64,000 bases of DNA, from assembly GCA_016214565.1 (NCBI GenBank), contig JACROE010000002.1, positions 119,654 through 183,653 on the forward strand, in the 5' to 3' direction. The position numbers were made by a program, and so were the translations under genes. Each line of letters opens with the position of its first letter. The first letter of the stretch is position 1. Shown here piece by piece: positions 4,162-31,614 of this stretch. The stretch comes from Candidatus Kerfeldbacteria bacterium (GTDB lineage: Bacteria; Patescibacteriota; Patescibacteriia; UBA10025; JAHIVO01). The notes beneath the pieces are model-generated. The model had not been told where the DNA came from, did no database searches, and saw nothing but the letters and a program-made list of their open reading frames with translations.

Positions 4162-4189
4162 TCATAGGATGATTGCACATCTCTCGTAC

Positions 4190-5002: not shown

Positions 5003-5192
5003 CCAGCCTGCGCTTGGCACCCGCCGCCGATCATTGGCGAACGTCCGTCTCCGCTTGAGACGACACTCGCCTGATTGCACCAAAACCCCGTACACTGACA
5101 TTCGTCGTGTGCGGGGTGATTTATTATTGACAATGACATCAGCAACACGCTACACTGAGATCAGTAAATGTATTAAACATGTTTGGAGGAAC

Positions 5193-5357: not shown

Positions 5358-5514
5358 CCGCCCCAGGCTATTCCCCAGAAAGCCCGCGCACTTCTCCAAT
5401 TCTTGCGCGGGCTGATTTTTTCTGTCCACGGACTACTTGACGAATCCCGTACCCGACACTAGGATGGGGACAGACAAAAAAACAGTTCTTTTCACATACA
5501 GACTGGAGTGTATT

Positions 5515-6033: not shown

Positions 6034-6106
6034 TCTACCATTTCGTTCACGTCTAACCATCGGCCATTGCACTATTGTAATGGCCGATTATTTATGAATA
6101 ATAAAA

Positions 6107-6134
6107 CCCCATGTCTTGCAGTCGAGACATGGGG
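6107..6134 (-). terminator. rho-independent terminator for the 6162..6686 gene
   Basis: Perfect 10-bp stem CCCCATGTCT/AGACATGGGG followed by TTTTATTATT on the minus strand. Confidence 0.6.
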
Positions 6135-6161
6135 TCGCGCATGATTGGTAGTCATGCGCAA

Positions 6162-6686
6162 TTACAGGAGCAACGAGAGAAAGCAGAAAGCGCCAAGCGG
6201 AAAGTCATTAGCCGCATCAATAGCAGCAGCTGCTATCATCGCGAAATCGGGATTGTCGATAAGCATGACGCCAGTTACGGTGACCGATTGCCCGATCATA
6301 TAGTACAGCCTGCCGGTATCAGTATCCTGACACGTGACAGAGCCATACACGCTGATCACGGAACCAATCTTCACCTTGGCATACTGTTCGTTATCGACGA
6401 CTACAGCGATGACATCCTCTTCAGAAAGCTTGCCCGCTTCAAGTTCCGGCAGCGGCAGGTGCGCAACCACCAGCACGGATCGATTATCCCGCTGGTACAC
6501 ATAGACAACCACCCCATCTGAAAAATTCCTTGTGGAATAATACAGAGATGTCGGACGATCGTCCATGATCTGGCCGAACGTCACGGGCTTTATCGGAGCA
6601 CCGAAGTCATTGCTCAGGCCAACGAAATACAGAATAGTTAGCGCCGCCCACACCCCAATACCCAGGATCAAACATAATCGTTTCAT
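6162..6686 (-). CDS. hypothetical secreted protein with signal peptide or N-terminal anchor
   Basis: Start MKRLCLILGIGVWAALTILYFVG preceded by AAAGAGG; the longer ORF-track start at 6746 is less likely. Confidence 0.5.
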   Translation of the reverse strand: MKRLCLILGIGVWAALTILYFVGLSNDFGAPIKPVTFGQIMDDRPTSLYYSTRNFSDGVVVYVYQRDNRSVLVVAHLPLPELEAGKLSEEDVIAVVVDNEQYAKVKIGSVISVYGSVTCQDTDTGRLYYMIGQSVTVTGVMLIDNPDFAMIAAAAIDAANDFPLGAFCFLSLLL

Positions 6687-6878
6687 ACACAACCTCTTTC
6701 GTTTAACATGTATCAGAATTCGGAATATTCTATTTCTATAGCTCAATTGTAATGTGCGAAAAGAAACAATCCATTATACTCCAAATGGCCGATTTGTCAA
6801 GGCCTCAAGCGTGCATAAAGAAAGCCCGCGTCCTGATACAGGAAGCGCGGGCCGATACAATGTCGTCAGGGTGACGAG

Positions 6879-7382
6879 CTAATTACGATGAAGAAAGTGC
6901 TCTGCTAAGGCTCGAGGATCCGCAAAACGCGGCTCGATATCCTTTCCGGCAAACATGGCACGGAATTTACGACGGACAATACGGTCGGTGACCCCTGCTT
7001 CAGCGGCATAATTGGTAAAGCAGATATCGGTCGACCAGTACGAATCCAGGTACATCACGGGAACGATCATGCGCATACGTTCGCGTGTTGGATGAATGGT
7101 GGTACCCAAATGATGAATCGGGGTAAGAATAAACCCCTCACTCATTTGCTTCAGAGCTCTAGCTAACGTGGCGGGTGATTCCATCTGTGTGGCGACATGA
7201 ATCACCACGTCCAGCTTGTGGCTCATGGGGTAGAGCGCCGCCTTGCCTATGATAGCTGAAAATTCAGCGGTTGCGGGCACGGCGGCCAATTCGGCAAAAA
7301 AGATAGTCAAGTCAGGCGATGCAGCAGTAAAGCTCTGCCGGTATAGGTCAATAGCCTCCTGCATATAATAGTGAAAGTACAT
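6879..7382 (-). CDS. hypothetical protein (167 aa)
   Basis: ORF with a near-perfect 12-bp hairpin terminator downstream at about 6822-6853. Confidence 0.5.
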   Translation of the reverse strand: MYFHYYMQEAIDLYRQSFTAASPDLTIFFAELAAVPATAEFSAIIGKAALYPMSHKLDVVIHVATQMESPATLARALKQMSEGFILTPIHHLGTTIHPTRERMRMIVPVMYLDSYWSTDICFTNYAAEAGVTDRIVRRKFRAMFAGKDIEPRFADPRALAEHFLHRN

Positions 7383-16782: not shown

Positions 16783-17490
16783 TTACGCGGTTGAAAATAA
16801 TTTCTTTGTATAATTAACCAGGGCAAAGGCGTCTTCATAATCCATCCGCATCGGTCCGAGTACGCCGATCAAGCCGGGCTCGGTGCCTTTCAGCTGATAC
16901 GGACTAAATATCGTACTGCATTCTTTGCCAAATGGATTTTCTGATCCCACGAGAATGCGCGGGGTGTCAGTCACTTTCACGAAGAGCTCCGCAATCACGT
17001 CATCCAAATGATCCACAATCGCTGACAAATGCCGCACCATATCAATGTCCGCAAATTCCGGGTGGCTGAATAAATTTGATAAACCAGTATAGTAGACGTT
17101 GTCGCGAGAAAAGCCGACAAAAACCGCGTTCTGTGATATTTCGGCAAGCGTGCGTGCGACATTCTTAACGCAAACCTGTGTATTTGCTTGGTTTTGTTTG
17201 TTAAGCGCCTTCTCCAGCAGCGTCATCTGTGGCGCAGCAGGCTGCTTTTCTACGAGGAAATTCTCAATGTAGTACTGCCAGCCCTTTTCCGTGGGGATGC
17301 GGCCAGCAGAGGTGTGAGGCTGAAAAATCAGGCCTTCTGACTCTAGGTCAGCCATTTCATTCCGAACGGTAGCCGATGATAATTCGAGTTGATACTTATC
17401 CACAAGAGCCTGAGAAGCAACGGGTTTTCCATTTCCATGGACGTGCTCCTTGATAATTGCGCTAAGTATAGCTCTTTTTCGTTCCTTCAT
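16783..17490 (-). CDS. hrcA: heat-inducible transcription repressor HrcA (short form)
   Basis: N-terminal winged helix (ERKRAILSAIIKEHV...) and a CIRCE element immediately upstream. Confidence 0.8.
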   Translation of the reverse strand: MKERKRAILSAIIKEHVHGNGKPVASQALVDKYQLELSSATVRNEMADLESEGLIFQPHTSAGRIPTEKGWQYYIENFLVEKQPAAPQMTLLEKALNKQNQANTQVCVKNVARTLAEISQNAVFVGFSRDNVYYTGLSNLFSHPEFADIDMVRHLSAIVDHLDDVIAELFVKVTDTPRILVGSENPFGKECSTIFSPYQLKGTEPGLIGVLGPMRMDYEDAFALVNYTKKLFSTA

Positions 17491-17505: not shown

Positions 17506-17544
17506 ATTATAAATCATTTAGCACTCTCACGTCAAGAGTGCTAA
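17506..17544 (-). promoter_or_regulatory. CIRCE operator TTAGCACTC-N9-GAGTGCTAA (17518-17544) overlapping a TTGACG-17-TTATAAT promoter
   Basis: Perfect 9-9 inverted repeat with a 9-nt spacer, 28 bp upstream of the hrcA ATG; the -35 lies inside the spacer. Confidence 0.8.
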
Positions 17545-17567
17545 AGTCGTTCTTTATTACTTCTAGA

Positions 17568-18431
17568 CTAAAGAAAACGGAATGTCTCAATAATTTTATC
17601 CATTCCCTGAAGCAATGCTGACTCTTCCTCAGTAAGGTTATTTCTGTTTATCAACCTTCGCAATTCAGAATCGGTTACACTATCCCAAGCTTGGGTGTCA
17701 TTACTCGTGCAGTCCCATCCCCCATCGGTAAATAATATTGAACTGATAATAAGTCCTTTATAAATCGAATGATCAATGTTCAGCCAACTCTCTCTGATAA
17801 ACATGGGTGAACACTCAGGAGCATCAAAACGTAGTCTATCAAAGGTATTCTGACCTGCCACAGTCTTATTGACGCAGTACGAATAATCCTCAATAACACC
17901 GGGAGTCGAACATTCTTGAGCTAAATTCGCCCCACCATTATATGAGGTAAGTGCAACAAAATCTCGATAATCACTTGAGGATAATCGTATGTTTGGTTTT
18001 GTTGAGTTCTCAAATGTAATATTAACCCCCTGCCCCTCATAATAACTCCGTTCGTCATTTCTATAATCATTATTTGTCACCTTAACGACACCCCAGTTAT
18101 TCGGATATTGAAAACTAATCCCATACTCCTCATTCTCATACGTCAGCCAATCCGACGTATCTACTGTGGTAATATCGGCATTCGTATTGATATTCGAATT
18201 TGCGTTGAGATTTAGATTGACGTTCACATTCTCTATGAATGTCTTGCCATTGATGGTGCACTGCCCAGGATAAATAGCTAAAACCTGACCGACAGCTTTC
18301 GCGCATTCCTCAAAACTATCAACGGAATCGTATTGATGCTGATTAAAATACCATGCAGTGCTAACCATCAAAACCGCCACCAGGGAAATGGCGATAACGA
18401 CGACGATGGCGATAAAACCGCGATTGAGCAT
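17568..18431 (-). CDS. secreted or anchored protein with conserved RGF N-terminus (287 aa)
   Basis: N-terminus MLNRGFIAIVVVIAISLVAVLMV; N-rich linker; Cys-containing C-terminal domain. Confidence 0.55.
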   Translation of the reverse strand: MLNRGFIAIVVVIAISLVAVLMVSTAWYFNQHQYDSVDSFEECAKAVGQVLAIYPGQCTINGKTFIENVNVNLNLNANSNINTNADITTVDTSDWLTYENEEYGISFQYPNNWGVVKVTNNDYRNDERSYYEGQGVNITFENSTKPNIRLSSSDYRDFVALTSYNGGANLAQECSTPGVIEDYSYCVNKTVAGQNTFDRLRFDAPECSPMFIRESWLNIDHSIYKGLIISSILFTDGGWDCTSNDTQAWDSVTDSELRRLINRNNLTEEESALLQGMDKIIETFRFL

Positions 18432-18439
18432 TGTAAGCC

Positions 18440-20065
18440 TTACTTAAGAAATGGGAACTGAATGGTATCCCTTATTTCCAAATAAACACCCAGCAAATCA
18501 TCATAGAACTCAAAATTTGTATAATAAACTATCATTTGATCATCAAAAATTGGAAAACATGTATAAGCAGCAACATCTGTTGTGCCATTATTTCCAATCA
18601 AATATTCCGCTTCAATCCCCGACACACTAATAGTTTCAGTGGTTGACAGACTTTTTACTGATACATTTGCCCAAGCAATTGCTTTGCATTGGTCAAAAAG
18701 TGGCGATGATAAATCATAAGGCTTTACAATGAACTCAATTTGGCGCGCATGATTCTTCTTCAAATTTTCAGTATCGCCTAAGAAAATTCGCGTATCTCTC
18801 CCTATTTGCCAGCTTGCTGGATGATAGAAATTAATGATTACTGACCTGAAATCAGAATAATATTGATCCCAATCCTTATATTGGGGGATAGATGCCGCAT
18901 ACCCAGGTGTCATAACGGTAATGCTCTCGGCTATGCGTAAAAATATTTGCTCGAGTTGTTGATGATTTTCAACATTTGCCCAGCCATCCAACATAAACCA
19001 CCTTCCATCTTTTATAAATCCAATTTGCGTATGATAGGATTCCCGCTTCGCAATACTCCACTTATCTAACGCTACATAACCATTAACGCCGGAAATGACG
19101 CCCTGACTTTGAAATGTCTCTGGATCCCACCACGTTGAAGGTGGTTCAAACTCCCAAGCTTCAATACCAACTGACATTCCTTGCTTGGTAATATGACTAC
19201 TCCACGGACTGGTACCATCGTCTCCAACAACTAAATCAGAACTTTGCGCTACCTTTCTATCATATGAATAGATGTGAGTTGACCCGGCTTCGAGGGTCCA
19301 ATTGCCAGGATATTCGTATGAATATTCACCTCCGGCGGAAATATATTTCTGCCAGGTGCCATTCAATGCTTCATCAATTAGTTCTTGACTCTCACGGTAG
19401 CTGGTTGATCCAGCGGCGGTATTTATTTTTTCATTCGTGTTGAGTGGCTGAGTTGCTTCGTTAACCAGTACCGAAGGCTTAATTTCTGAATAAACTTCAA
19501 ACCGATAAATAACATCCTCTTCCTCTTGTAGCGAAGTATTTGCCGTAACCACGGTAAAAATGTTACCACGGGGTATCAGATAATAATGCCTCATTGTCGT
19601 CCCCACTTCGACACTCGCATGTCGGCCGATAATATGGCCAACCTGGAACTCCTCCCAGGAGGAAATATCAATACTTTCAGACTCATACAAATAGTCTTTC
19701 AATTCACTCTCGCTCAGATTTGCTTGATCAACGATGATATACATAAATCCATCCGCCTGCTTGACCCCAATACTATTAATCACGTTACCAAGAAACATAC
19801 TACTACGATTATCAGAATAATCTTTGATAGCTAACTCTTTGGGATAATAAAACCGATATCCAAATGTATCATTCTGATATATGGCATAATCAACTTTTTC
19901 TGCCTCTGGTATCACTATAGTTGAGTCCTTGATGTTCGGCTGGACTGCCACAACTTCGATATCCCTACTCCCCCGCTCAGTGACCACTGCCACGGTCAGC
20001 ATTAAGATGGAAATCAAAGAAATGGCGATAACAGCCACGATGTGAACAAAGCCTCGCTGATTCAT
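18440..20065 (-). CDS. secreted or anchored protein with conserved RGF N-terminus (541 aa)
   Basis: N-terminus MNQRGFVHIVAVIAISLISILML, paralogous to the N-termini at 17568 and 20948. Confidence 0.55.
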   Translation of the reverse strand: MNQRGFVHIVAVIAISLISILMLTVAVVTERGSRDIEVVAVQPNIKDSTIVIPEAEKVDYAIYQNDTFGYRFYYPKELAIKDYSDNRSSMFLGNVINSIGVKQADGFMYIIVDQANLSESELKDYLYESESIDISSWEEFQVGHIIGRHASVEVGTTMRHYYLIPRGNIFTVVTANTSLQEEEDVIYRFEVYSEIKPSVLVNEATQPLNTNEKINTAAGSTSYRESQELIDEALNGTWQKYISAGGEYSYEYPGNWTLEAGSTHIYSYDRKVAQSSDLVVGDDGTSPWSSHITKQGMSVGIEAWEFEPPSTWWDPETFQSQGVISGVNGYVALDKWSIAKRESYHTQIGFIKDGRWFMLDGWANVENHQQLEQIFLRIAESITVMTPGYAASIPQYKDWDQYYSDFRSVIINFYHPASWQIGRDTRIFLGDTENLKKNHARQIEFIVKPYDLSSPLFDQCKAIAWANVSVKSLSTTETISVSGIEAEYLIGNNGTTDVAAYTCFPIFDDQMIVYYTNFEFYDDLLGVYLEIRDTIQFPFLK

Positions 20066-20094: not shown

Positions 20095-20988
20095 TTACCA
20101 AAAATATGCCGTGATGTAACTAGTGACGGCCGGGATTGAGGTATCACCGGTCACGTCCACCGTATCCAGGGAATCCAATATTTGTACGTGGCCAACTCGG
20201 CGCTCATGGAGGTAATGGAAAAGTACCGACAAACTGGCCGGCGAATCAACATAGATACCTTTGGTCGTCTCCGGATCCATAGTTTTCAGCAGTTCAATGC
20301 TGGCCGCGTTCTGCAGCATAGCCTGCCGATGATTTACATTGTGCGCGAAATCCACGCTGACTAGCACCAGACTATTTTCCGGCAACCGCTGCGCCAGCCA
20401 ATCCCCCAGCTGTGTCAGCTCCTCCGCTGACGTATGCTGCTGGATAGTAATCGGTACGATACTGGCTCGAGGGAAACTGCGACGGATAAAAGCCACTTCA
20501 GAAGTGATGGAATGCTCCACGTCAAAGAGCGACTCATCAATCGTAACCACGCCATCGGCTGCCATCGATTCTATGATGGGCGTGTGCGGATATAATATCC
20601 CGTAAGGCGTGTACCAACTGCCCACCGAGGTGGCGATATGGTAATCACTGCGATTTAAATGGTCAGGTCCGATGAGCACAATGACTTCCGGGGATTGGAC
20701 TGATTCAATCCCCTGAAAAAATTCCGCGATCACATGTGAGGCGATCAAATGATGCGGGATAATGCCGCCGCGAACCATCCCCTCTGGCGCAGGTGGCGTA
20801 TTACGCGTATACGCCAGATCAAAGAATTCTTGCTCCACGAAGAATGACCGGTGCACCACGGTGGATGCTGGCCGGCCATTCACTGCATTACTAAAATATA
20901 TGGCGCTGCCGATCAGGAATAGACTGATACTAAGAATGATAACAACCTTAGCGTAACGCACCGCCCCATTCGACAACAGTAAATCCAT
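20095..20988 (-). CDS. MEMO1/AmmeMemoRadiSam-B family protein with N-terminal TM anchor
   Basis: GGIIPHH...GPDH...SVDFAHN motifs match the Memo/LigB-like fold; start taken at ATG 20988 (the ORF-track start 21021 overlaps the upstream gene by more); hydrophobic N-terminus AKVVIILSISLFLIGSAIYF. Confidence 0.55.
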   Translation of the reverse strand: MDLLLSNGAVRYAKVVIILSISLFLIGSAIYFSNAVNGRPASTVVHRSFFVEQEFFDLAYTRNTPPAPEGMVRGGIIPHHLIASHVIAEFFQGIESVQSPEVIVLIGPDHLNRSDYHIATSVGSWYTPYGILYPHTPIIESMAADGVVTIDESLFDVEHSITSEVAFIRRSFPRASIVPITIQQHTSAEELTQLGDWLAQRLPENSLVLVSVDFAHNVNHRQAMLQNAASIELLKTMDPETTKGIYVDSPASLSVLFHYLHERRVGHVQILDSLDTVDVTGDTSIPAVTSYITAYFW

Positions 20989-23191
20989 CGCGTGCTGGCG
21001 TCCGTATTTCCAGCGGCTCAACGGTAATCGGTTTGTCCAGGCCCTGATAATCCATGAAGACGCGGATAACGCTGTCTGGCCGCGGTGACACAGTCAGTGG
21101 CGCCAGGGTGTCGAAGACCGCCTGGTCAACGAAGGTCACGAAGTAGTACGGCTGCTGCTGCATGCGGGGCACCCAGAACTTTATGAAGTCAGCTGATTCT
21201 TTTTCATTCAATCCGAGCAAGGCTAATTTCTCCTCAAGGAATGACCCAACATCCGCTCGCGCTACCACGAAGCCTTTTTCTGGCGTGACGTAATTAATCC
21301 CCTTTCCTTCCCAGAAGAGATAGGGATAAGTGAGGCCGTCAGCGTAATCTAACGTGCCATCAGGATGCGCAATCACGTTCCATCCACCCACGGGATATAA
21401 TGGATCAGTGATGGAGAACCCGCCATTGGGATCAACTTGCACATTCACCTCCATCGTGGACTGCGGGTACAGGTAAATCACGGGTTTGCCACACTCGACG
21501 GCTGGTAAATAAGTTACCCGAGTAAACCGCACCCAGTGATCCAACGGGTCTTTCCAGAAGAACATCGGACGGTCGGCCACGAAATCATCATAGTCCATCT
21601 TTTCTTCCTGGTAGGGGGCGTAATACATATCATACGCGGACTTCAGTATTTGAGCATCGGTATCCTTAAACGTATATACCTTGTCCCCTGATGACGTCGT
21701 GCCCATCACTTTCAGCGCGCTGATGCCGCCTAATTCTTCCTCGGTATACATGGCGTGGCACGAGGTGGAGCCGCACCCGCCGGCTGGCTCACTGAAAGTG
21801 TACTCATCGTCATTGGTCGTGCCGTCGCTCCAGGTAATCGCGGGGACGGACTGATTTGTTCCAACAGAATATTCGCGTTCCGTAAAATCACGGATGAAAT
21901 CAAGTTTGAGATGATACAGCTTCACCGTGCCATCATCGCGCACGATCAGGTAGCAATCGTCCGCCGGGTCAAAGAATACCGAACCCAAATCGTCATCTTT
22001 AAACGCTTCGCGGGCCTCGGCATGATCAGTATAAAATTCGTTAGTATCAAAAGCTTCAGCTACCAAATCAACATCGCTATTGGGGATATCGATCTCTTCT
22101 GGCGTCACCAGATCGGGAATGGTCGAGCCAATATCATAAGTGAATTTTGAACCGAGATATGACAGATTGTCTGAATATTTCTCGAGGTAGACAAACGTCT
22201 TAGCCGTCTCGTCAAATACCACTCGATACAGATTTGGATAGAATGCCGGACCCTCAGGCCACTCGAGAATAACGACGAGCGCGTCTCCCTCGTACCGGCC
22301 ATTAGTGATTTGCCCCACGTCATAGTAGAATCGCCGGGTATACAGTGACCCGCTGCTGGTTATAACTGGATCAATCAGATTTAATTCTAGTGGTGACTCG
22401 CGCCAAATCACTTCGAGCTCATATCCTTGGCTAGCGGCAATGGCGGTGGTCTTGGTTTCAGCAGGTATGGTAATCAAGGGTAGTGGATCGATGAACCGGA
22501 AACTTTTCCAAATAGTATTGATTGTTCCGCTAACCAGCGCTAGATCGGGCGCATAACCATGAAAAGCAAATTCATACACCCGCTCATCGCCGGCGATAAA
22601 CGCCCAGACCGTCGTGTAGTCGCTGGTATTTTGGGATACGTCCAGCACGATAATCTCGCCTTCAGTACCCTCTATCGTTTTTGGTTCATTGAAGACATAT
22701 TCATCCGCGAATGTCTCTTGATATTTGCTCACCCACGTTGCCAGACTGTCATTGCTCGCATTCTTATGATAGATGACATCTCCGCTGACCCTACTCTCAC
22801 CCTGCGCAATACCATTGACCCATAATAAATAATCATTGTCATTGACGCCCATACTGGAGGAGCCATCATCCCAATCGCTGGGAATATCGATGGCGATTCC
22901 GTGATCAGCCTTCTGATAGGTAATCGTCTGCCAACCGTCAGCCGCCGCAGTGGTGGTCGTATCATGAGGCGCAATATTCACCGGCTCAAGATCAACCACA
23001 TAATTTGCATTATCCGCTAAATACGGATCCTGTGACTGGGGGCCATTGGTTATCGTTATGTTCTGCGATCCACCGTCATTATCCTCAGTATCATTGTACT
23101 CTACGTACCAGGCCGCACCCACCATGACGATTGCTACCAGGACAATGGCAATAACCGGAACAAAATAGACAAAGCCCCGTTGATCTTTCAT
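20948..23191 (-). CDS. large secreted or anchored protein with conserved RGF N-terminus (747 aa)
   Basis: N-terminus MKDQRGFVYFVPVIAIVLVAIVMV; no recognised catalytic motifs. Confidence 0.55.
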   Translation of the reverse strand: MKDQRGFVYFVPVIAIVLVAIVMVGAAWYVEYNDTEDNDGGSQNITITNGPQSQDPYLADNANYVVDLEPVNIAPHDTTTTAAADGWQTITYQKADHGIAIDIPSDWDDGSSSMGVNDNDYLLWVNGIAQGESRVSGDVIYHKNASNDSLATWVSKYQETFADEYVFNEPKTIEGTEGEIIVLDVSQNTSDYTTVWAFIAGDERVYEFAFHGYAPDLALVSGTINTIWKSFRFIDPLPLITIPAETKTTAIAASQGYELEVIWRESPLELNLIDPVITSSGSLYTRRFYYDVGQITNGRYEGDALVVILEWPEGPAFYPNLYRVVFDETAKTFVYLEKYSDNLSYLGSKFTYDIGSTIPDLVTPEEIDIPNSDVDLVAEAFDTNEFYTDHAEAREAFKDDDLGSVFFDPADDCYLIVRDDGTVKLYHLKLDFIRDFTEREYSVGTNQSVPAITWSDGTTNDDEYTFSEPAGGCGSTSCHAMYTEEELGGISALKVMGTTSSGDKVYTFKDTDAQILKSAYDMYYAPYQEEKMDYDDFVADRPMFFWKDPLDHWVRFTRVTYLPAVECGKPVIYLYPQSTMEVNVQVDPNGGFSITDPLYPVGGWNVIAHPDGTLDYADGLTYPYLFWEGKGINYVTPEKGFVVARADVGSFLEEKLALLGLNEKESADFIKFWVPRMQQQPYYFVTFVDQAVFDTLAPLTVSPRPDSVIRVFMDYQGLDKPITVEPLEIRTPARDGFTVVEWGGALR

Positions 23192-23209
23192 ATAATAATT
23201 ATTCAGTAA

Positions 23210-23815
23210 TTAAATATCACTAAAAACTTTTTGGCAAAAACCACTGACACAGGCTGCGGTGTAATCCTCATTGTCATTGTCAGGGCATTGCGGTGGCGAA
23301 TATTGCGGGCAGAGCACGGCCGCGCATGCCCCGGTGGCTATCTCAGCGAGCGCTTCATAGGCCGCGCCGCTGACCGCCATATAATCATCACTTGAGTAAT
23401 CAGTGCACGTCGGCGCAGCACAGCAGTCGCTTGAATCATGCGTCACATCCACCAAACGGCAACCCGTATCGCTGGTACACTGAGTCGAGGCCTCACCGTT
23501 TGCAGTCGTGACCATAGTCGCGCTATTGGTATTCGCATTAGTATTTGACAATGTCGGATACTCGCAGTCCGCCGGGCAATAATGCGTTATACACGGCTGG
23601 CACAGAGCTTCGTCAGTGCACTCGCTCGGTACGCATGTCTGCTCTGTTACCGAACAAATGTCATCACCACAAACAACCGTACTGACCACCTCGGATCCGT
23701 CACCCGGCTCAAAAAGATAACTGAACAGTACGGCATTTAACGCTACCAGCGTGATGAATACCAAGGCAAGCCACGTGATGACGTGCCGTTTATGATGCTG
23801 ATCCCCCGTCGTCAT
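23210..23815 (-). CDS. cysteine-rich secreted protein (201 aa, about 22 Cys)
   Basis: N-terminal TM anchor; N/T-rich linker; many CxxC and CC pairs. Confidence 0.5.
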   Translation of the reverse strand: MTTGDQHHKRHVITWLALVFITLVALNAVLFSYLFEPGDGSEVVSTVVCGDDICSVTEQTCVPSECTDEALCQPCITHYCPADCEYPTLSNTNANTNSATMVTTANGEASTQCTSDTGCRLVDVTHDSSDCCAAPTCTDYSSDDYMAVSGAAYEALAEIATGACAAVLCPQYSPPQCPDNDNEDYTAACVSGFCQKVFSDI

Positions 23816-23830
23816 ACAAAAATTATAATA

Positions 23831-24400
23831 TTAATCGCCGACGTACGTTTCGGCAGCCACATACACGTTCCAAGTGGCTTTCCCACCAGGTACGTAGACT
23901 GATGCCCCAGCTGCTCCCGTCATCTGCGCGGTTTCAATGACCACGGTGTACGCCTGGACTGTGTCACCATCTATGGTTCTAGCCTCAGCAAACGTGTACG
24001 TCGCAGTTTTCGCGTCTTCACTGAAGGAAATGGTGGCCGGCACCTTCTCCTCAACCCCCTGTAGTACATAGAAATTTTCCTGGCTGATCGTCGTCGAATC
24101 AATCGGTTCGCTAAACGTAATCGTAACCGCCGATAACTCGTCCACCGTGCTACCTGCCTGCGGCGTCGCATCCACCAGGGCAATATCAGACCGGCGATTA
24201 GCATTCACCGTATTGGCGTTACCATTGACCGTCGGTGCTTCTGCCGGACTGACAAACACCACATAAAAAGCAATGATAAAACCAATAACCACAATGGTAC
24301 CGACGCCAAGCCATAATTTGAGTTTAGCCTGACGGACTGGATCCGGTGCTGGTTTCGTATTCATAGCCATGCTCATAGTATACCAAAAACCGCGCGGCAA
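23831..24400 (-). CDS. membrane-anchored protein with an Ig-like (Big/SbsA-like) extracellular domain
   Basis: TM segment LGVGTIVVIGFIIAFYVVFV, then a β-rich domain with a TITFSEPID-type motif; the start may be the internal Met at 24376. Confidence 0.45.
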   Translation of the reverse strand: MPRGFWYTMSMAMNTKPAPDPVRQAKLKLWLGVGTIVVIGFIIAFYVVFVSPAEAPTVNGNANTVNANRRSDIALVDATPQAGSTVDELSAVTITFSEPIDSTTISQENFYVLQGVEEKVPATISFSEDAKTATYTFAEARTIDGDTVQAYTVVIETAQMTGAAGASVYVPGGKATWNVYVAAETYVGD

Positions 24401-24432
24401 CGCACCACGCGATTTCCTGCAATATAAAAACC

Positions 24433-25248
24433 CTACTCAGCTCGATTGAAGCTCCAGAATGCCAAAATGAACATAACCATACCAAAAGCAATAATAATAC
24501 CCATATCCATGCTAGCACTGTGGTTGATGATGCTATCCCGCAGCTGCTGCGGTGCGTCGCTAAAGACGATATTGCGCAAACCGTCCACGGCATAGGTCAA
24601 TGGATTCACCGTAGACAAAATCTCCATCCATTTCGGCACATTGGTCAGTGAAAAAAATGCGCCGGACAGAAACATCATGGGGAAAAAAAGAAACTGGAAA
24701 ACGAATTGGAAACCTTCGGCATTGCGCATGCGCGAAGCGATGAAGAGCCCCAATGCCGTCACGGCAAACGATAAGAGGAAGGAAAAGAAAAGAATGCCGG
24801 GAATGGTTGACCAAACGATTTCTAGCCCGAAGATCGGCGACAACACAATCAAGAGAATTGCTTGAAATAAACCAATCACAATGCCGGACAAAATCTTTCC
24901 AAACATTATTGATGCGCGCGAGACCGGTGCCACCAATATTTCTTTGAGGAATCCAAATTCTCGGTCAGTCACGATGGAGATGGAGGTATTGAGAGCCACG
25001 CCAAGCGTCGTCGTAGCAATAATCCCAGGAAACATAAATTGAACAAAATTAAAGCCAACCCCCGGCCCCCCACTCATATTGAGAGTTGCCTCAAGCCCAA
25101 CGCCAAAAATGCCAAGAAAGATTACCGGCTGCATCACCGAGCCAATGATACGCGCCTTATCTCGAAAAAAGCGCAGGATGTCACGGATAAAAATATTTCT
25201 CACCGAGCGGAGTTCAAGCGCAAAACCGGTTGTATAGTTTGTATGCAT
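24433..25248 (-). CDS. ABC-2 type transporter permease
   Basis: Six TM helices, ABC-2 family signature, directly downstream of the ATPase gene. Confidence 0.85.
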   Translation of the reverse strand: MHTNYTTGFALELRSVRNIFIRDILRFFRDKARIIGSVMQPVIFLGIFGVGLEATLNMSGGPGVGFNFVQFMFPGIIATTTLGVALNTSISIVTDREFGFLKEILVAPVSRASIMFGKILSGIVIGLFQAILLIVLSPIFGLEIVWSTIPGILFFSFLLSFAVTALGLFIASRMRNAEGFQFVFQFLFFPMMFLSGAFFSLTNVPKWMEILSTVNPLTYAVDGLRNIVFSDAPQQLRDSIINHSASMDMGIIIAFGMVMFILAFWSFNRAE

Positions 25249-25252
25249 AGTA

Positions 25253-26242
25253 TTAACGTCTAAATCCTCTGGTTCTTAAAAATCGTTTCGATTTTTCAGC
25301 AGCACTCGGCGCTTCATCCCGAATTTTTGAACCAGTGAGTTTGATAAACACATCATCCAAGGTCGGCTGTTGAAGCGCAATGCTCAATACTTTCTGCGGC
25401 AACTCACGCACCAATTTTGGCAATACCTCATTGCCATCTTTAACCACCGCAACTACCTGGTCATCTTCGATCCGCACATTTTCTGAAAAATGCGCCTTAG
25501 TATAATCCAATGCCGCAGCGTTATCATCTGTTTTCAAACTAATGATATCTCCGCCTACGCCTTCTTTCAGCTGAGTGGGGGTATCCAACGCTACGATCGT
25601 ACCATGGTCAATCACGGCGATCCGATCGCAATACTCCGCCTCATTGAGATAATGGGTGGTCATAAAGAGGGTAATTCGCTCCTGTTTGGCAATTTTCAAT
25701 ATGTACTGCCACATAGTGGCACGGGTTTGGGGATCGAGGCCGATCGTCGGCTCATCGAGGAATAATATTTTCGGATAATGCAGCATGCCACGCACGATTT
25801 CTAAGCGACGTTTCATCCCGCCCGAAAAATCGCGCACCGGTTTCTTTGCCCGATCTTTCAAATCAACTAATTCGAGTAGCTCATCCACTCGGGGTTTATA
25901 AATACTGGAGGGTACTCCATAAAATTCCGCATGGAACCGTAGATTTTCATACGCGCTTAATTCTTCGTCCAAAGTAGGCTCCTGGAACACCATGCCGATG
26001 GATTTCCTGACAGCGATCCGATCAGTCTTGACCGAGTACCCGGCAATGCGGGCCTCACCGCTGGTTGGTTTCAGTAACGTAGAGAGCATCTTTATCGTCG
26101 TCGTCTTCCCTGCGCCATTGGGGCCAAGAAAACCAAATACCTCCCCCTCTTTCACCGTGAAACTAACCCCCTTCACTGCTTGGAAATCCCCAAAAAATCG
26201 AACCAAGTCGCTTACTTCAATAATTGTATTCGCTTCATTCAT
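25253..26242 (-). CDS. ABC transporter ATP-binding protein (DrrA-like)
   Basis: Walker A GPNGAGKTT, signature FSGGMKRRLEI, Walker B LFLDEPT. Confidence 0.9.
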   Translation of the reverse strand: MNEANTIIEVSDLVRFFGDFQAVKGVSFTVKEGEVFGFLGPNGAGKTTTIKMLSTLLKPTSGEARIAGYSVKTDRIAVRKSIGMVFQEPTLDEELSAYENLRFHAEFYGVPSSIYKPRVDELLELVDLKDRAKKPVRDFSGGMKRRLEIVRGMLHYPKILFLDEPTIGLDPQTRATMWQYILKIAKQERITLFMTTHYLNEAEYCDRIAVIDHGTIVALDTPTQLKEGVGGDIISLKTDDNAAALDYTKAHFSENVRIEDDQVVAVVKDGNEVLPKLVRELPQKVLSIALQQPTLDDVFIKLTGSKIRDEAPSAAEKSKRFLRTRGFRR

Positions 26243-26514
26243 GATTTCTTTTTAGTAATTTTCTTTAATTGTTTAACTGACGCTTGCGCCTGCTTCAAAT
26301 GTGATTCGAATAGGGTAATCATTGAACCGGCGTCCTGCTCGCGGATGAGACCAATGATTGAATTATGTTTCGTGAAAACAATCAATGAATCCCCTGGCTT
26401 AATTCCCAATTGTTTGCGCAGTTTCGCTGGTATAACAATCTGCCCCTGGCTGGCAACGGTGACCGAACCGTGGATTTCAGGGCTGATGTGATGAGTAAGT
26501 GGATGGGTAACCAT
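26239..26514 (-). CDS. AbrB/MazE/SpoVT-family DNA-binding protein
   Basis: Looped-hinge helix motif GQIVIPAKLRKQLGIKPGDSL; 4-bp overlap (ATGA) with the ABC ATPase gene. Confidence 0.7.
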   Translation of the reverse strand: MVTHPLTHHISPEIHGSVTVASQGQIVIPAKLRKQLGIKPGDSLIVFTKHNSIIGLIREQDAGSMITLFESHLKQAQASVKQLKKITKKKS

Positions 26515-26547: not shown

Positions 26548-26721
26548 AGGATACTCCCCGACTGCCTGCCTGTCAAGTACGACAAAATCAGCGCTGTAGA
26601 AAAGCGCCTGATGAATACGTTTGCTACCACATACAATCGTTACTCCCCGCAGCCACAGCTACCGCCGCACGGGCAGTCACCGCCGCAGCACTGAAGTCCA
26701 CGGATATGCATCAAAATAATA

Positions 26722-27801
26722 CTATTCATGGTTATCTGATTCATGGATGGATGTGACCGCTGCCGGTGTCTCTTGGCCATTGCCATTCACCGGGATAGCG
26801 TCTACCTTTTTTGCAAACATGGTTTCCCCGAGAGTCAAACCAAATCGGGATAAGTAGAACAACCCGATGCCGACCTTAACGAGATCAACAGAACGAAATA
26901 TTAGACTAAAAACAACACCTTGCTCAGCTGGATACCCAATCAAAGTAAAAATCAACGCCAGTCCAGTTTCAGTAGAGCCGATTGAGCCCGGGATTGGCAA
27001 AAGGAAAGTGATGACCGTTAACGTTGAAATCAAAATGATGTCCAGAAATGACGTACTCATGCCGATAAACCGGGTAATCAGCCACATGGCGGTCAGGGTA
27101 GACAAACCGCCCGCGATTGATAACCCAATTCCCTGCCAAAATACCCGAGTATGATTTTTGAAAAACTCAACAATAATCTGCTCAAAGTTCGCAATTTTCT
27201 GCATGGCTTTTGCCATGAAAGAAAAACGATGCAACTGTACAAATCGAATGATGCCACCAAAAAAATGTCGACGAGTCAGTGTACGATAATAAAAGAGTCC
27301 AAGTAAAAAGATAAAAGTGCCACTCACCGCAATCAGACCTAATACGATCTTTGCAGACAAATCAAAATAGATGAGGGCATAAAAAATGCTAAAAACCAAA
27401 AAAGGCAACGCATAAGAAAAATCCATCACTTTGTCCAAAATGATCGAAGCAAGCCCCTGCGCCATAGGCACACCGGTCCCCTTTTTCAAAACAAGGGCGC
27501 GAATCGCTTCACCGCCAATATTCGGTGACGGAGTAAGATAGTCACCGGCAAAACCGACGAGCCGAGAAGCGAACAGCTTCTGGGTAGGAATATCATACCC
27601 CTGACTTTTCAAAATCAAATGCCAGCGATACAGCGTAACGTAGAGTGCCAGGGAATAAAAAAAGACGATGACAAGCCATTTCCAGAGCGTGAATGATTGG
27701 ACGGCAATGAATATCGAATCCCAGCCTAACCGCCAAAAAACGCCGACAAATAATGCGATGCCGACCAGTAAGGAAATACCAAAGAATATTATTTTCTTCA
27801 T
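26722..27801 (-). CDS. flippase-like/LPG-synthase-TM (UPF0104) family membrane protein
   Basis: About 8 TM helices; resembles the TIGR00374 flippase-like domain from memory. Confidence 0.5.
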   Translation of the reverse strand: MKKIIFFGISLLVGIALFVGVFWRLGWDSIFIAVQSFTLWKWLVIVFFYSLALYVTLYRWHLILKSQGYDIPTQKLFASRLVGFAGDYLTPSPNIGGEAIRALVLKKGTGVPMAQGLASIILDKVMDFSYALPFLVFSIFYALIYFDLSAKIVLGLIAVSGTFIFLLGLFYYRTLTRRHFFGGIIRFVQLHRFSFMAKAMQKIANFEQIIVEFFKNHTRVFWQGIGLSIAGGLSTLTAMWLITRFIGMSTSFLDIILISTLTVITFLLPIPGSIGSTETGLALIFTLIGYPAEQGVVFSLIFRSVDLVKVGIGLFYLSRFGLTLGETMFAKKVDAIPVNGNGQETPAAVTSIHESDNHE

Positions 27802-27878
27802 CGATGCCTAAAAAAACGAGTGAACTACCTCACCCCCCTAGTATACTCCGAAATGAACTGGTTAATCAATCCTATGAC

Positions 27879-28688
27879 CTAGTCATTCGGATAGACGACC
27901 ACAATTGCCTTCCTGCCGTTATCCACGTCTCCCCCGTTCCAATCATGCATGGCGCTCATCACCACGTCGATATCATATATGTAGTTTTCGCCCTTACGGG
28001 TGCCGACGTCATTGGTAACAAACGTATCAGCCGTATATCCTCGTACCACAAACATATGATACAGCGGTCCGCCATTGCGAAAATTTGGATTGCCCAGTTG
28101 CTTGCCTGCTGCCGGAATAATAACGGGGCGCCCAGCGGCCACGTGGCGCTTAATCTGATCTATCGTCGGATCATATTCTACATCTACTCGCTGATATCCC
28201 CAATACTCCTTAATCACCCGAGCGGTTTCCTCGGCAGTAGTATCTTTATAGTATCCAAGGATGTCTTCCTCCCAGGCAACCAAGTCCAAAATTTCGCGGT
28301 CAGCAATTTCCGCGGAGAATGTTTTTTGTGCGTAGTAATAATGCACGGTTAATGCCGAGGCTTCCTCGCAGGCTTCCTGATACGGATAATCCCAATTCGC
28401 AAACGGTGCCTGAGTAGTAAAGGGTAAAGCCAGATTAAATTCATTTGGGATAGTGGTAGGTTCAGTGACGACTGAGGCAGTATTAATATTCTGATTTGCC
28501 TCCGAACCCGCATTGGCATTGAGGGCGCGTTGCTCATTGACAATCTCAGAAAATGAAACCGGCTCAGGCGCTGGCTCTGACATCCAATTATCCCAGACTT
28601 CAACAACCCGGTGCCGACCTAAATAAGCCAGACCGGCAACGATAAAAACAATCAGCAGTAAATTAAAGGTAAATAGGCCTTTTCGCAT
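27879..28688 (-). CDS. secreted protein with C39-like (peptidase_C39_2/YvpB-like) domain
   Basis: Signal anchor; Cys in QEACEEASALTVHYYY and His in HMFVVRGY, consistent with a papain-like C39-like fold. Confidence 0.5.
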   Translation of the reverse strand: MRKGLFTFNLLLIVFIVAGLAYLGRHRVVEVWDNWMSEPAPEPVSFSEIVNEQRALNANAGSEANQNINTASVVTEPTTIPNEFNLALPFTTQAPFANWDYPYQEACEEASALTVHYYYAQKTFSAEIADREILDLVAWEEDILGYYKDTTAEETARVIKEYWGYQRVDVEYDPTIDQIKRHVAAGRPVIIPAAGKQLGNPNFRNGGPLYHMFVVRGYTADTFVTNDVGTRKGENYIYDIDVVMSAMHDWNGGDVDNGRKAIVVVYPND

Positions 28689-28748
28689 ACGATAAAAATG
28701 GCGCTTATTAACTTCGCACTATACGCCTCTCTCAAATTTTAGTCAATA

Positions 28749-29705
28749 TTAAAACCAATCCTTGCGCTTAAAATACAACGCTAAGACATACACTGACACG
28801 ACCATTGAACCGATCGCCAACCAAAAACCAAAATGGGAATTCAGCATCGGGATATCCTGAAAATTCATTCCGAAAATGCCCGCGATCAAGCTCGGCACGA
28901 GAATAATAGCGCCCCAGGAAGTGACGCGCTTCATGGTCACATTCAGGCTATTTGATATCGTGGTCAAATGAATCTCAATGGCTGACGTCAAAATATCACG
29001 GTAAGTCGTCACCATTTCAATCATTTGGACAATATCGGAATTGAGTTCGCGAAAACCGGCCAGCTGATTTTGATCAAGGAAGGTGGCATACTCTTTTTCA
29101 ATGCCGGCAATCACGTCGCGATTCGCCACTAACGCCTTATGAATATAAATCATGCTTTTTTTAGTAATGAACGTTCGCTGCATCACCTCTTTACTACGGG
29201 TATAATCGAACATTTCTTCCTCAATTCGCTCAATCCGGTCGCTCAATTCGTCAATGCTCAGAAAATACGTATCCATAATCTCATCTAAAATTGCAGATAC
29301 TAAATGCGTAATTCCTTGCTTAAATATCCCATGCAGCCGTTGAGCTGAATAGGCGTAAATCCGATTAATACCTATACTTTCACGTTTGTGTACCGAAATA
29401 ATATCATGTCGACTTTTTGAGACAAATAAAATAAGCGGTGTGGTTCGCCAGGTATGCTCCACTGATTCTACGATATGTACAATAATTAATGAGTAGTGCT
29501 CCAGATTGCGCACTAGCGGCCGTTGTTTACGTTGTAACATCTGCCCAATCTCATCCTTCGATAATCCAACAAGTGCTCCAATCCGCGTCAATTCTTCATC
29601 CGTCGGAGCCACCACATCAACCCAAGCTGGAACATGCCCTTTGAGTGCGTCAAAATCAGCGGCTGCTACCGCCCCATCGCGTAATACTTTTGCCGTAATT
29701 GCCAT
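28749..29705 (-). CDS. corA: Mg2+/Co2+ transporter CorA
   Basis: C-terminal two TM helices with the YGMNF signature. Confidence 0.85.
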   Translation of the reverse strand: MAITAKVLRDGAVAAADFDALKGHVPAWVDVVAPTDEELTRIGALVGLSKDEIGQMLQRKQRPLVRNLEHYSLIIVHIVESVEHTWRTTPLILFVSKSRHDIISVHKRESIGINRIYAYSAQRLHGIFKQGITHLVSAILDEIMDTYFLSIDELSDRIERIEEEMFDYTRSKEVMQRTFITKKSMIYIHKALVANRDVIAGIEKEYATFLDQNQLAGFRELNSDIVQMIEMVTTYRDILTSAIEIHLTTISNSLNVTMKRVTSWGAIILVPSLIAGIFGMNFQDIPMLNSHFGFWLAIGSMVVSVYVLALYFKRKDWF

Positions 29706-29715
29706 AATGGTAATG

Positions 29716-31614
29716 TTATTCTACCACAACTCCGCTATTTCCGAGGAGTCCCCACATCCAGAGGAAATGACTCAGCGACAAATAACGCTCACCCGCTAAT
29801 GGATCCATAACAATGATTTTCGTCGGCGCGGCGGCAGAGCCGACAAATCCCGTCACCACAAACGTGTGCTCGCCATTCACCGCGATAATATCTTTTCCTT
29901 CCGGCGTTTTCCAGTCAATTCGTGTTCCACTCCCGGCTGTTCCCCAGATAACGATGGGATGACCCTTCTGTATTTCACCTATTAAGTGGCCAAGCTCTCC
30001 GCCGGTAAAAGCGCGCGTGGTGCGATACGCCGATCCGGCTGCCGCAATCGGATCCCAATACACTCCATATCCCGTTGATGGCTGGTGGCCGTCGATATCG
30101 CCGACAAATGCTTCATAGGGATCACCCCAAATACCATTTGATTTTGGTGTAGGATCAAAACCAATTGCGTCAATCAATTCCTGTTCACCGACGTTGGCTC
30201 CGAAATAATTGAGCGCCATTTTCAGGGTGGCTACTTCACAGCTTAAATTATGGTCTTGGTGATCATAAACCACGCCTAATTTAGTAACGGAAAGTTCAGT
30301 AGAAAATGAAGATGAATAATCTGATTCGAGCGTCAAGCCGCCGGTTCCCTTCACCCCAGCGGCAATGGTGGCCGTATAGGTAGTATTGAAATCAAATGGT
30401 TCGCCAGGGGTGAATATCATCGTATTCTCATCCCAGCTCACGGTTCCGTCTACGGATGGGCTAAGCGACAATTTGGCTTCGGCCGATGCATGATCCACTG
30501 CCTGATTGAACCCAAACTGCAATCGGGCATTGACGCTGACACCGGTACTATCCGAGGTTGGTGTAGAGATAGCCACGCGCACCGGTCCGATCGTGGTGAA
30601 ACTATGCGTAGCGCTTTCCGTCAGGTAACCGCCGGTGAAGGTAGGCAGCCCTTCTGTAAGCGTCACCGTATACGTCATATCACGCTCTAATTTTTTTGGA
30701 GTAAAGGTTACGGTTCGATAATCAGTCGTTGCCCACGCTCCATCAATGCTGGGATCAAACGTCACATATGCAGGCAGCGATTCCATATCAATATTTTCTG
30801 AAAACGTGATCGTGATCGGCGTATTCAGCGGTACACCAGTGCCCTGCGGTGCAAATGAATCAATGCCCGGCGCTTCGCGTACCGTCCACGATTGTTTGCG
30901 AGCTACCACCGGTTCAGTTCGTGCGGCAATCTCATTGGTGCCAAACAAATATCGCAGTGTTTGCTGGCTGACGATCATCGTATACTGCGCACCCTGGGAT
31001 AATTTGCTTTTTGGCGTTACCACATAGGACTCCTGATCGCTGCCGGCTACCATATCAAATTCAATAGCCGGTTCGAATCGAACCGACCAGCTGCTCGTTG
31101 TTTCGATTGGTTGGTCAAAAGCGATGGTCCAGGAACCGTCAGCACGAAAAGGCTCATCGCTATTCGGCATAATGCTCGTGACAGCCTGGGCTGGAGGAGT
31201 TTTGAACGTCAACACATAGTCAGTCGGTTCAGTAAAAGACGGGGTAGCGCCGTGGACCGCGTGCAACGTAATTTCATAGGTTGTATCCGGCAGCCAGGTT
31301 AATTCCGGGGTGAACACCAGTGTGCGAACCAATTGATCGCGAATCACCGCTTCATCGTAACTGACGGTGCCAAATACCTGCGGGGTAATCGATACTTCCA
31401 CATCACGCGCAATCGGCCAATCAAAATTAATAACCAATGATTGATCAAGCGGCTGTATATCATCGACAATACTGATGATAGTTGGTTGCGGCGATTTACC
31501 CCCCATGACCACGGCGATTAACCCAACAAAGAGCATCGCGCTGACGATGCTGATAATAATGTAATGGGTATGGGTAAGTATAATTTTTTTTGTTTTTGTT
31601 TGGAAAACTTCCAT
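29716..31614 (-). CDS. large surface protein: N-terminal anchor, tandem Ig-like (Big/SbsA-like) domains, C-terminal C39-like peptidase domain
   Basis: Repeated β-rich TITFSE/LQFGF-type segments; C-terminal LSCEVATLKMALNYFG...EHTFVVTG (Cys/His); extended -10 promoter TGTTATAAT at 31632-31642 (minus strand). Confidence 0.55.
   Translation of the reverse strand: MEVFQTKTKKIILTHTHYIIISIVSAMLFVGLIAVVMGGKSPQPTIISIVDDIQPLDQSLVINFDWPIARDVEVSITPQVFGTVSYDEAVIRDQLVRTLVFTPELTWLPDTTYEITLHAVHGATPSFTEPTDYVLTFKTPPAQAVTSIMPNSDEPFRADGSWTIAFDQPIETTSSWSVRFEPAIEFDMVAGSDQESYVVTPKSKLSQGAQYTMIVSQQTLRYLFGTNEIAARTEPVVARKQSWTVREAPGIDSFAPQGTGVPLNTPITITFSENIDMESLPAYVTFDPSIDGAWATTDYRTVTFTPKKLERDMTYTVTLTEGLPTFTGGYLTESATHSFTTIGPVRVAISTPTSDSTGVSVNARLQFGFNQAVDHASAEAKLSLSPSVDGTVSWDENTMIFTPGEPFDFNTTYTATIAAGVKGTGGLTLESDYSSSFSTELSVTKLGVVYDHQDHNLSCEVATLKMALNYFGANVGEQELIDAIGFDPTPKSNGIWGDPYEAFVGDIDGHQPSTGYGVYWDPIAAAGSAYRTTRAFTGGELGHLIGEIQKGHPIVIWGTAGSGTRIDWKTPEGKDIIAVNGEHTFVVTGFVGSAAAPTKIIVMDPLAGERYLSLSHFLWMWGLLGNSGVVVE

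Follow-up and report, generated by a model that had tools for sequence, protein, structure and literature searches.

The stretch of DNA analyzed here is a window of 64,000 nucleotides (64 kb) from contig JACROE010000002.1 of a Candidatus Kerfeldbacteria bacterium. On its minus strand the window carries a gene for a MEMO-like protein that is very probably exported (the target), and directly upstream of it the gene for a large surface protein of 747 amino acids (aa), denoted below as the partner. The features of the two genes, all on the minus strand, are as follows.

20095..20988, minus strand: gene for the exported MEMO-like protein, from the listing of open reading frames (ORFs), with the stop codon at 20095-20097
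20893..20952, minus strand: N-terminal hydrophobic helix AKVVIILSISLFLIGSAIYF, residues 13-32, with a Kyte-Doolittle value of 2.66 and a helical conformation in the AlphaFold2 (AF2) model
20098..20856, minus strand: putative catalytic domain with the MEMO/LigB fold, residues 45-297, from AF2, Foldseek, and conservation
20948..23191, minus strand: partner gene (HZC01_00695, annotated as "hypothetical") for an N-terminally anchored surface protein of 747 aa without a Pfam or NCBIfam match
23093..23164, minus strand: N-terminal membrane anchor of the partner, residues 10-33, from the AF2 secondary structure and the sequence
22502..22933, minus strand: PsbP/Mog1-like domain of the partner, residues ~87-230, restricted to the long orthologues (~750 aa) within the clade
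20951..22501, minus strand: family-defining region of the partner, residues ~231-747, from family alignments
20948..20988, minus strand: stretch shared by the 3' end of the partner gene and the 5' end of the Memo-like gene, with a length of 41 nt from the ATG start and 14 nt from the GTG start at 20961

Three start codons are open to the target ORF. From the ATG at 20988 it encodes 297 aa, the stop codon being included in the span. The NCBI record of the same protein (P0001, 100% identical, from a metagenome-assembled genome (MAG) of Candidatus Kerfeldbacteria) starts at the GTG at 20961, nine codons later, and has 288 aa; it is named "AmmeMemoRadiSam system protein B". The third start is a TTG at 21021. 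The partner gene closes with ...VVEWGGALR-TAA within the target ORF. An earlier reading of the DNA without database searches (the sequence-only reading) had described an overlap of about 40 bp with the preceding gene, and this is found when the ATG is used but is much shorter from the GTG. The extended forms of the Memo-like ORFs have a conserved peptide, LSNGAVRY, at their N-terminus (20948..20988 in the window; at ~6001 in the loci L004, L005, and L006). It was considered as a marker of the true start and was rejected because it is a by-product of the gene overlap, being the invariant C-terminus of the partner, VVEWGGAL(R/H), translated in a different frame. These invariant codons also provide the GTG start, together with a run rich in G just 5' of this GTG.

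The sequence-only reading had placed the target in the MEMO1/LigB-like fold from three motifs, which were located at residues 74-80 (GGIIPHH), 107-110 (GPDH), and 211-217 (SVDFAHN). The target was found to match the Pfam family Memo (PF01875) with 78.6 bits, where the gathering threshold is 27, over profile positions 29-260 of 269, and TIGR04336 with 86.7 bits, against a cut-off of 26 for this model of type "hypoth_equivalog". Both scores are far above threshold, and no other family was assigned by the profile searches. The AF2 model has a mean predicted local distance difference test (pLDDT) score of 90. With this model, Foldseek returned human MEMO1 as the best match in the PDB, with a template modeling (TM) score of 0.72 and an E-value of 6e-15; the top matches 7l5c, 3bcz, and 7kq8 have TM scores of 0.69-0.72 and E-values of ~1e-14, and the next matches are extradiol dioxygenases of the LigB type (aminophenol, DOPA, and gallate dioxygenases). 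A profile built from ten relatives also recovered human MEMO1 from the PDB at an E-value of 1e-8, whereas a phmmer search of the PDB with the target alone gave only noise (LOV-histidine-kinase matches at an E-value of 0.3). The fold assignment is thus confirmed by profiles, model, and structure comparison.

MEMO1 and the target share only ~14-16% of their sequence. In the profile alignment, with which hhalign agrees, PH79, GPDH110, EH159, and D213-F-A-H216 of the target correspond to PH49, GPSH81, EH131, and D189-F-C-H192 of MEMO1. The metal ligands of MEMO1 are H49, H81, and C244, which are equivalent to H12, H61, and E242 of LigB, and H131 and H192 of MEMO1 are close to the metal without coordinating it (PMC11081632). 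Fe and Cu are bound by MEMO1 at the homologous site, and enzymatic activity was not detected (PMC11081632). In the target the putative metal site is made up of H79, H110, and D248, with H80, E158, H159, D213, and H216 as the second shell. Residue conservation was determined with 156 representatives, in all of which H79, H110, D213, H216, and D248 are invariant; H80 is conserved in 154, S249 in 151, and H159 in 146 of them, and position 158 is always E or D. The histidines expected to bind the metal are therefore conserved throughout. In a global profile alignment of 157 sequences, V247-D248-S249 falls on I243-C244-G245 of MEMO1, such that the position of the MEMO1 cysteine is occupied by the invariant Asp248 in a protein that has no cysteine at all. 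D248 is found at the N-terminal end of a helix predicted by AF2 for residues 250-262. By way of MEMO1, residues H79, H110, D248, and H216 align with H12, H61, E242, and H195 of LigB, with Asp instead of Glu as the carboxylate. The exported branch would thereby possess a His-His-carboxylate set together with both second-shell histidines. As a ligand set, this would resemble that of MEMO1 less than that of a dioxygenase or of a mononuclear metallohydrolase. A catalytically active metal site appears reasonably probable.

The same residues bring to mind a surface-displayed extradiol dioxygenase of the LigB type that would cleave external catechol-like small molecules. The triad would be restored, the equivalents of both catalytic histidines are kept, the fold is shared, and the dioxygenases are the closest structures after MEMO1; two relatives also give sub-threshold matches to PF02900 (LigB). 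However, the target itself has no match to PF02900 at an E-value of 0.01 or better, the carboxylate is Asp where the enzymes of this type (LigB, DesB, aminophenol, and DOPA dioxygenases) have Glu, and no genes for aromatic catabolism were found in any of the neighborhoods examined. The hosts, which include Patescibacteria, Clostridia, Peptococcia, and Syntrophothermus, are mostly anaerobic fermenters. A dioxygenase would, moreover, offer no explanation for the strict association of a surface-tethered protein with large surface proteins, as described below, and we regard this explanation as distinctly improbable.

The sequence-only reading had also proposed that the target is anchored in the membrane and faces outward. 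The N-terminal hydrophobic segment was found to be real; it is modeled as a helix and is kept with every possible start codon. R11 and K14 precede it, and a possible signal peptidase site, between SNA and V, follows it. An N-terminal hydrophobic helix is present in 147 of the 156 proteins examined. The charge and cysteine statistics were determined with 148 sequences, for which the mean flanking charge is +3.2 on the N-terminal side and +0.4 on the C-terminal side; the N-terminal value is the larger in 130 of them, which is the pattern of an N-in/C-out protein. A lipobox pattern occurs in 17 sequences, of which about 14 are credible lipoproteins. In the close orthologues P0004, P0005, and P0006, the sequence LAGC or LSGC is aligned with the target helix, and these three, together with P0011 and P0012, are among the orthologues with an LAGC, LSGC, or LTGC lipobox. 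No lipobox ([LVI][ASTVI][GAS]C) is found in the target, which has zero cysteines, and its anchor must therefore be a signal-anchor or a cleavable type-I signal. Cysteine accounts for 0.14% of residues on average and is absent from 109 of the 148 sequences, compared with 2.36% in MEMO1.

Additional support for the location comes from relatives in which the Memo-like domain is fused at its C-terminus to PF09587 (PGA_cap). In 33 of 35 long representatives, no second hydrophobic segment was found, and in the other two it falls within the Memo core, so that the Memo and PGA_cap domains must reside in one compartment. The PGA_cap protein PgsA is periplasmic, as determined with PhoA and GFP fusions (PMC7490850). 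The charge bias of the family, the lipobox orthologues, the depletion of cysteine, and the PGA_cap fusions all support an extracytoplasmic location, and we are highly confident that the target is an exported protein with the MEMO fold.

The name given to P0001 implies a very different protein: a conventional cytoplasmic AmmeMemoRadiSam protein B that operates with AMMECR1 and a radical-SAM enzyme, with the N-terminal helix being incidental or an artefact of annotation. The score against TIGR04336, the membership in PF01875, and the NCBI name itself are in favor of this explanation, and Patescibacteria do carry canonical Memo-AMMECR1 fusions. However, the LRGCIG motif of AMMECR1 was not found in any frame of the 64-kb window, the radical-SAM motif CX3CX2C was not found in its ORFs of at least 150 aa or in its stop-to-stop segments longer than 38 aa, and neither PF01871 (AMMECR1) nor Radical_SAM has a match within 10 kb on either side of the target. 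The nearby AMMECR1 or radical-SAM partner that would have spoken for a cytoplasmic protein is thus missing from both ranges. The helix is retained with every start codon and in nearly all relatives, some of which have lipoboxes, and the cysteine that binds the metal is replaced. The motifs differ as well: the target has PHH and VDS where the AmmeMemoRadiSam protein B has PHAGY and a Cys motif of the MEMO1 type (ICG in MEMO1). A canonical fusion from the Candidate Phyla Radiation (CPR) scores ~185 bits against Pfam Memo, compared with 78.6 bits for the target, which belongs to a divergent, exported branch. A canonical cytoplasmic system is effectively excluded for the window, and as a general explanation of the target we consider it highly improbable. 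With neither an AMMECR1 nor a radical-SAM partner among the genes of the window, the NCBI name is probably wrong for the target. It also looks wrong for the exported branch, which comprises at least the 150 best-scoring clusters at 50% identity and possibly hundreds.

An example of the canonical fusion is found in the Patescibacterium locus L055 (10372..12018), where the Pfam Memo and AMMECR1 domains score 185 and 186 bits, respectively. The longest ORF for this fusion opens with a hydrophobic, lipobox-like segment, which may reflect a start that was read too far upstream. The same genome also encodes an exported Memo-PGA_cap protein with a partner.

The sequence-only reading had described the Memo family as normally cytosolic, but anchored homologues are not rare and make up a large subfamily. 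A word-index search with the target alone found 10 relatives; an exhaustive profile search, which revealed the size of the subfamily, found 9778 at an E-value of 1e-3 or better and 1744 at 1e-30 or better. Scanning of species-representative genomes gave 321 relatives, and the loci analyzed were the best 80 of these. They are mostly from many classes of Patescibacteria, with 9 from Bacillota and one each from Chloroflexi, WOR-1, Ignavibacteriota, and Bacteroidota. The records of 23 of the 80 loci (L005, L009, L014-L016, L018, L020, and others) are titled "uncultured Gammaproteobacteria" or "Pseudomonadales" and are third-party annotation (TPA) co-assembly bins. These loci carry CPR-type genes with nearly the same sequences as in Patescibacteria MAGs (L009 versus L007, for example), and the labels look wrong.

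The most informative property of the subfamily is its genomic context. In three loci from different genomes (L001-L003), a protein of 756-761 aa without a Pfam match, 44-52% identical to the 747-aa protein of the window, is encoded directly upstream of the Memo-like gene, and in L002 the pair is kept although every other neighbor differs. Across L001-L010, the upstream gene that directly adjoins the Memo-like gene encodes an orthologue of the 747-aa protein. Three classes of partner were distinguished. In class A, a homologue of the 747-aa protein is encoded immediately next to the Memo-like gene and in the same orientation; hidden Markov model (HMM) searches of all ORFs identified 43 such non-redundant loci, with the last ~460 residues of the 747-aa protein as the minimum coverage. 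Classes B and C were obtained by clustering of neighbors. In class B (17 loci), the upstream protein is an alpha-2-macroglobulin (A2M)-like protein of ~1650-1800 aa with the domains MG2, bMG3, A2M_BRD, A2M, TED, and bMG10; four CPR members contain the thioester motif CVEQ, which is found in none of the Bacillota members. In class C (16 loci), it is a DUF3160 protein of ~820-860 aa; a DUF3160 sequence that was searched against the PDB gave no relative.

In total, 76 of the 82 non-redundant Memo-like genes that were scored are adjacent to a partner of class A, B, or C, and L042, with a truncated class A partner downstream, constitutes a 77th pair. The converse was examined in metagenomes with class A genes that have at least 1.5 kb on both sides, and a Memo-like gene was found adjacent, in either order, to 36 of these 41 genes. 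When near-identical duplicates were ignored, the partner class agreed with that of the nearest Memo-like sequence for 72 of the 73 sequences compared. The gaps at the junctions are mostly between -4 and +20 nt: class B shows a 4-nt overlap of the ATGA type, class C a gap of 1-3 nt, and class A values of roughly -40 to +20 nt. With ORFs taken from their earliest starts, the orthologous pairs overlap by ~17-92 nt, except for one with a 3-nt gap, and the other pairs overlap by up to ~40 nt or are separated by 0-40 nt. This pattern of pairing argues for a dedicated functional link, probably a physical one, rather than inherited synteny, and the target and the upstream protein are, in all likelihood, a functional pair.

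Two loci have unusual arrangements. Tandem modules are found in L005 (71-6924), where a fragment of an A2M-like gene is followed by a Memo-like gene (684..1586) and a class A partner (3774..6035) by a second Memo-like gene (5944..6924). In L050 (1020-5996), from a Saccharibacteria MAG, the A2M-like protein contains the CVEQ thioester and a HINT/intein-like insertion (PF07591, residues 806-926), which separates the bait-region domain from the A2M domain.

The partner in the window was modeled by AF2 with a pLDDT of 87. Its anchor is followed by a disordered linker rich in Asn and Thr (residues 35-84, low pLDDT), and the PsbP/Mog1-like domain is followed by a beta-rich middle region and a C-terminal domain (residues 565-747) with the near-invariant sequences ECGKPVIYLYP, YPYLFWEG, and GFTVVEWGG. 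No counterpart of the beta-rich region and the C-terminal domain was found in the PDB by sequence or by fold. Among 8000 candidates that were scored, at least 6921 clusters belong to this family at an E-value of 1e-3 or better, and the source names among the matches listed are all "hypothetical" or "uncharacterized". The conserved cysteines C413, C473, C478, and C567 would fit an extracytoplasmic protein with disulfide bonds. A catalytic role for C567 is not favored because this residue is replaced in at least one member.

The fusions to PGA_cap suggest another possible function. The domain is present in about one-quarter of the representatives and in 44 of 85 genes in the genomic loci, and it retains the metallophosphoesterase-type motifs GD, NLE, NNH, HWGxE, and GHHPH. 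The Memo-like proteins could then be hydrolases or transferases of an envelope polymer (like capsule, teichoic acid, or poly-gamma-glutamate), with the CapA-like domain as the main co-worker and the large protein as cargo or scaffold. This explanation would accommodate the five stand-alone fusions that lack a partner, and PgsA is part of a polymer-export complex (PMC7490850). About half of the relatives of the target thus share with PgsA/CapA a domain on the same chain, but PGA_cap is absent from the target, from its clade, and from all ORFs of the window, and the partner is nevertheless kept there. The Memo-like sequence follows the partner class in all but one of the 73 comparisons, and neither a separate PGA_cap gene nor a recurrent gene for polymer synthesis was found in the clustered neighborhoods, where no search aimed at pgsB and pgsC was made. 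An enzyme acting mainly on an envelope polymer is therefore considered quite unlikely.

With moderate confidence, we favor the interpretation that the target is an outward-tethered metalloenzyme with the MEMO/LigB fold and is dedicated to working with the large surface protein whose gene is directly upstream. The tether would be its N-terminal signal-anchor, possibly with cleavage after SNA, or a lipid anchor in some of the orthologues. One divalent metal ion, Fe2+ or Zn2+, would be bound by H79, H110, and D248, with H216 and H159 functioning as acid and base. Coupled translation of the two genes would supply enzyme and partner in a fixed proportion for a complex at the surface, where the enzyme would covalently process or modify the partner, or else a ligand or envelope polymer that is held by the partner. 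The CapA-like domain in about half of the relatives suggests an extracytoplasmic reaction of two steps, the second of which may have been lost or moved elsewhere in the clade of the target. That the enzyme acts on the partner protein itself is a tentative suggestion. Somewhat more speculative, and doubtful at present, is the generalization that the exported Memo-like proteins, whether or not they carry a CapA-like domain, would be a hitherto unrecognized group of enzymes for protein maturation outside the cytoplasm. Each of them would serve a single large surface protein (of the 747-aa family, the bacterial A2Ms, or the DUF3160 proteins), in which it would install or process a covalent feature at the cell surface. 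Memo-like domains have been found fused to recognition elements for RiPPs, peptides made by the ribosome and modified after translation (PMC12710340), and by analogy this may be a weak hint of peptide-directed chemistry in the wider Memo family.

Several observations weigh against this interpretation. The positive-inside signal of the target itself is weak, with about +1 to +2 on each side of the helix when counted by eye; these flanking charges are indecisive, and the topology was therefore assigned mainly from the relatives. The assignment of D248 as the third ligand depends on the mapping in the profile alignment, and its placement relative to Cys244 is ambiguous by about 3 residues in MAFFT alignments and also indecisive in local hhalign comparisons. 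No homology could be detected with hhalign among the class A, A2M-like, and DUF3160 partners, so that a protein substrate common to all three is not obvious. Finally, five CPR Memo-PGA_cap fusions (L013, L014, L016, L017, and L018) are found among housekeeping genes with no partner nearby, and the enzyme can thus work by itself or with a partner from another locus. The fusions in L013, L016, and L018 sit between a CvpA-like gene and tatD, and those in L014 and L017 are upstream of a YebC-like gene and ruvC. The CvpA-like/tatD setting is the same synteny that flanks the pair in L002, which suggests that the partner was lost or relocated.

The target could also be an extracytoplasmic adaptor without catalytic activity, which binds metal or peptides and either hands the metal to the adjacent surface protein or scaffolds it. 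The tight pairing with large surface proteins would suit an adaptor, which would also resemble the roles proposed for MEMO1, namely, the binding of iron and copper and the docking of phosphopeptides, in the absence of detected activity (PMC11081632). However, the eight invariant or near-invariant polar residues, which include the two histidines with a catalytic role in LigB-type enzymes, E158, D213, and the three ligands, exceed what metal binding alone would need, and the frequent fusion to a domain with metallophosphoesterase-like motifs suggests catalysis. Among the potential recipients, DUF3160 is uncharacterized, and we know of no requirement for metal in the A2M-like proteins. We consider an adaptor unlikely.

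Among known systems, MEMO1 (3BCZ, 7KQ8, and 7L5C) is the best structural match and has the same set of histidines and aspartate, but it is cytosolic, rich in cysteine, and uses Cys244 as the third ligand, while the target is anchored and free of cysteine and has Asp248 at this position. A parallel for the gene pair itself is provided by Gram-negative bacteria, where, as Budd et al. reportedly described in 2004, the A2M gene yfhM is paired with pbpC. In both cases, a large envelope protein is strictly paired with the gene for one envelope enzyme, and the Memo-like genes have an A2M-like partner in 17 loci. The paired enzyme is PBP1c in the one case and Memo-like in the other, and the partner in the window belongs to an unrelated family without a Pfam match. 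Full-text literature searches returned no description of exported Memo homologues or of Memo-PGA_cap fusions, and nothing on a pairing of Memo with A2M-like or DUF3160 proteins. The fold and the family are known; the exported branch, the switch of a ligand from Cys to Asp, and the partner system appear to be undescribed.

For a member of the MEMO proteins, which occur from bacteria to humans, a fixed genetic partner offers a concrete candidate for a substrate or a complex. The module is among the few conserved pairs of envelope genes that are common to many classes of Patescibacteria and to monoderm anaerobes. It links three large families that are poorly characterized or uncharacterized: the family of the 747-aa protein (at least 6900 clusters), the A2M-like proteins of the Gram-positive type, and DUF3160. 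If the role in protein maturation were true, it would be the first defined enzymatic role for the MEMO fold and would mark a core envelope system of the Patescibacteria.

The remaining genes around the pair are found in two groups.

17568..20065, minus strand: downstream anchored proteins of 541 and 287 aa, not conserved with the module and absent from L001 and L002
23210..26514, minus strand: Cys-rich anchored protein of 201 aa, Big_5 protein, ABC2 permease, ABC ATPase, and MazE/AbrB-like protein, only partly syntenic in relatives

The genes from ~26514 to 17568 are all co-directional, with gaps of 4-32 nt, and a promoter-like site is located at 26576..26548. No terminator-like site was found in any intergenic gap before 17545; one such site (24405..24392) touches a gap but spans the start codon of the Big_5 gene. 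The genes at 23210..26514 probably share a transcript with the module. The sequence-only reading had spoken of a surface-protein operon, and the part of this claim that concerns anchored neighbors was borne out, since all same-strand genes from 17568 to 24400 encode N-terminal hydrophobic anchors. What is conserved, however, is not the whole operon but the target together with the 747-aa protein: conservation of the module does not extend to the flanking anchored proteins of 541, 287, 201, and 189 aa. Within 10 kb on either side of the target, the order is thiolase/ACP-synthase-III-type, Big_5/Peptidase_C39_2, CorA, Peptidase_C39_2, LPG_synthase_TM, MazE, ABC_tran, ABC2_membrane, Big_5, 201-aa, 747-aa, Memo, 541-aa, 287-aa, HrcA, GrpE, and HSP20.

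At least one segment of the type Y..YGF.F.YP..W, as in PsbP-like domains, is present in each of the two downstream proteins (541 and 287 aa). The 287-aa protein also gives a sub-threshold match to PF18933 (PsbP_2), and its N-terminus weakly matches the HMM of the partner. The 201-aa protein (23210..23815, minus strand) has many cysteines with CxxC- and CP-like spacing, for example CGDDICSVTEQTCVPSECTDEALCQPCITHYCPADC, and has no Pfam match. Upstream of the cluster (26722..31614, minus strand) are the genes for two Peptidase_C39_2 proteins, one of which is fused to Big_5, together with CorA and LPG_synthase_TM; the order C39_2, CorA, C39_2 is the same in the close relative L001. Downstream of the cluster, an inverted repeat resembling the controlling inverted repeat of chaperone expression (CIRCE), TTTAGCACTC-N9-GAGTGCTAAA, is found at 17517..17545 (17506..17535, minus strand), upstream of hrcA (16783..17490, minus strand). 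This repeat overlaps a near-consensus promoter, TTGACG-18-TATAAT. With the CIRCE-like repeat and a promoter of its own, hrcA-grpE-hsp20-dnaK is an HrcA-regulated unit that is separate from the surface-protein cluster.

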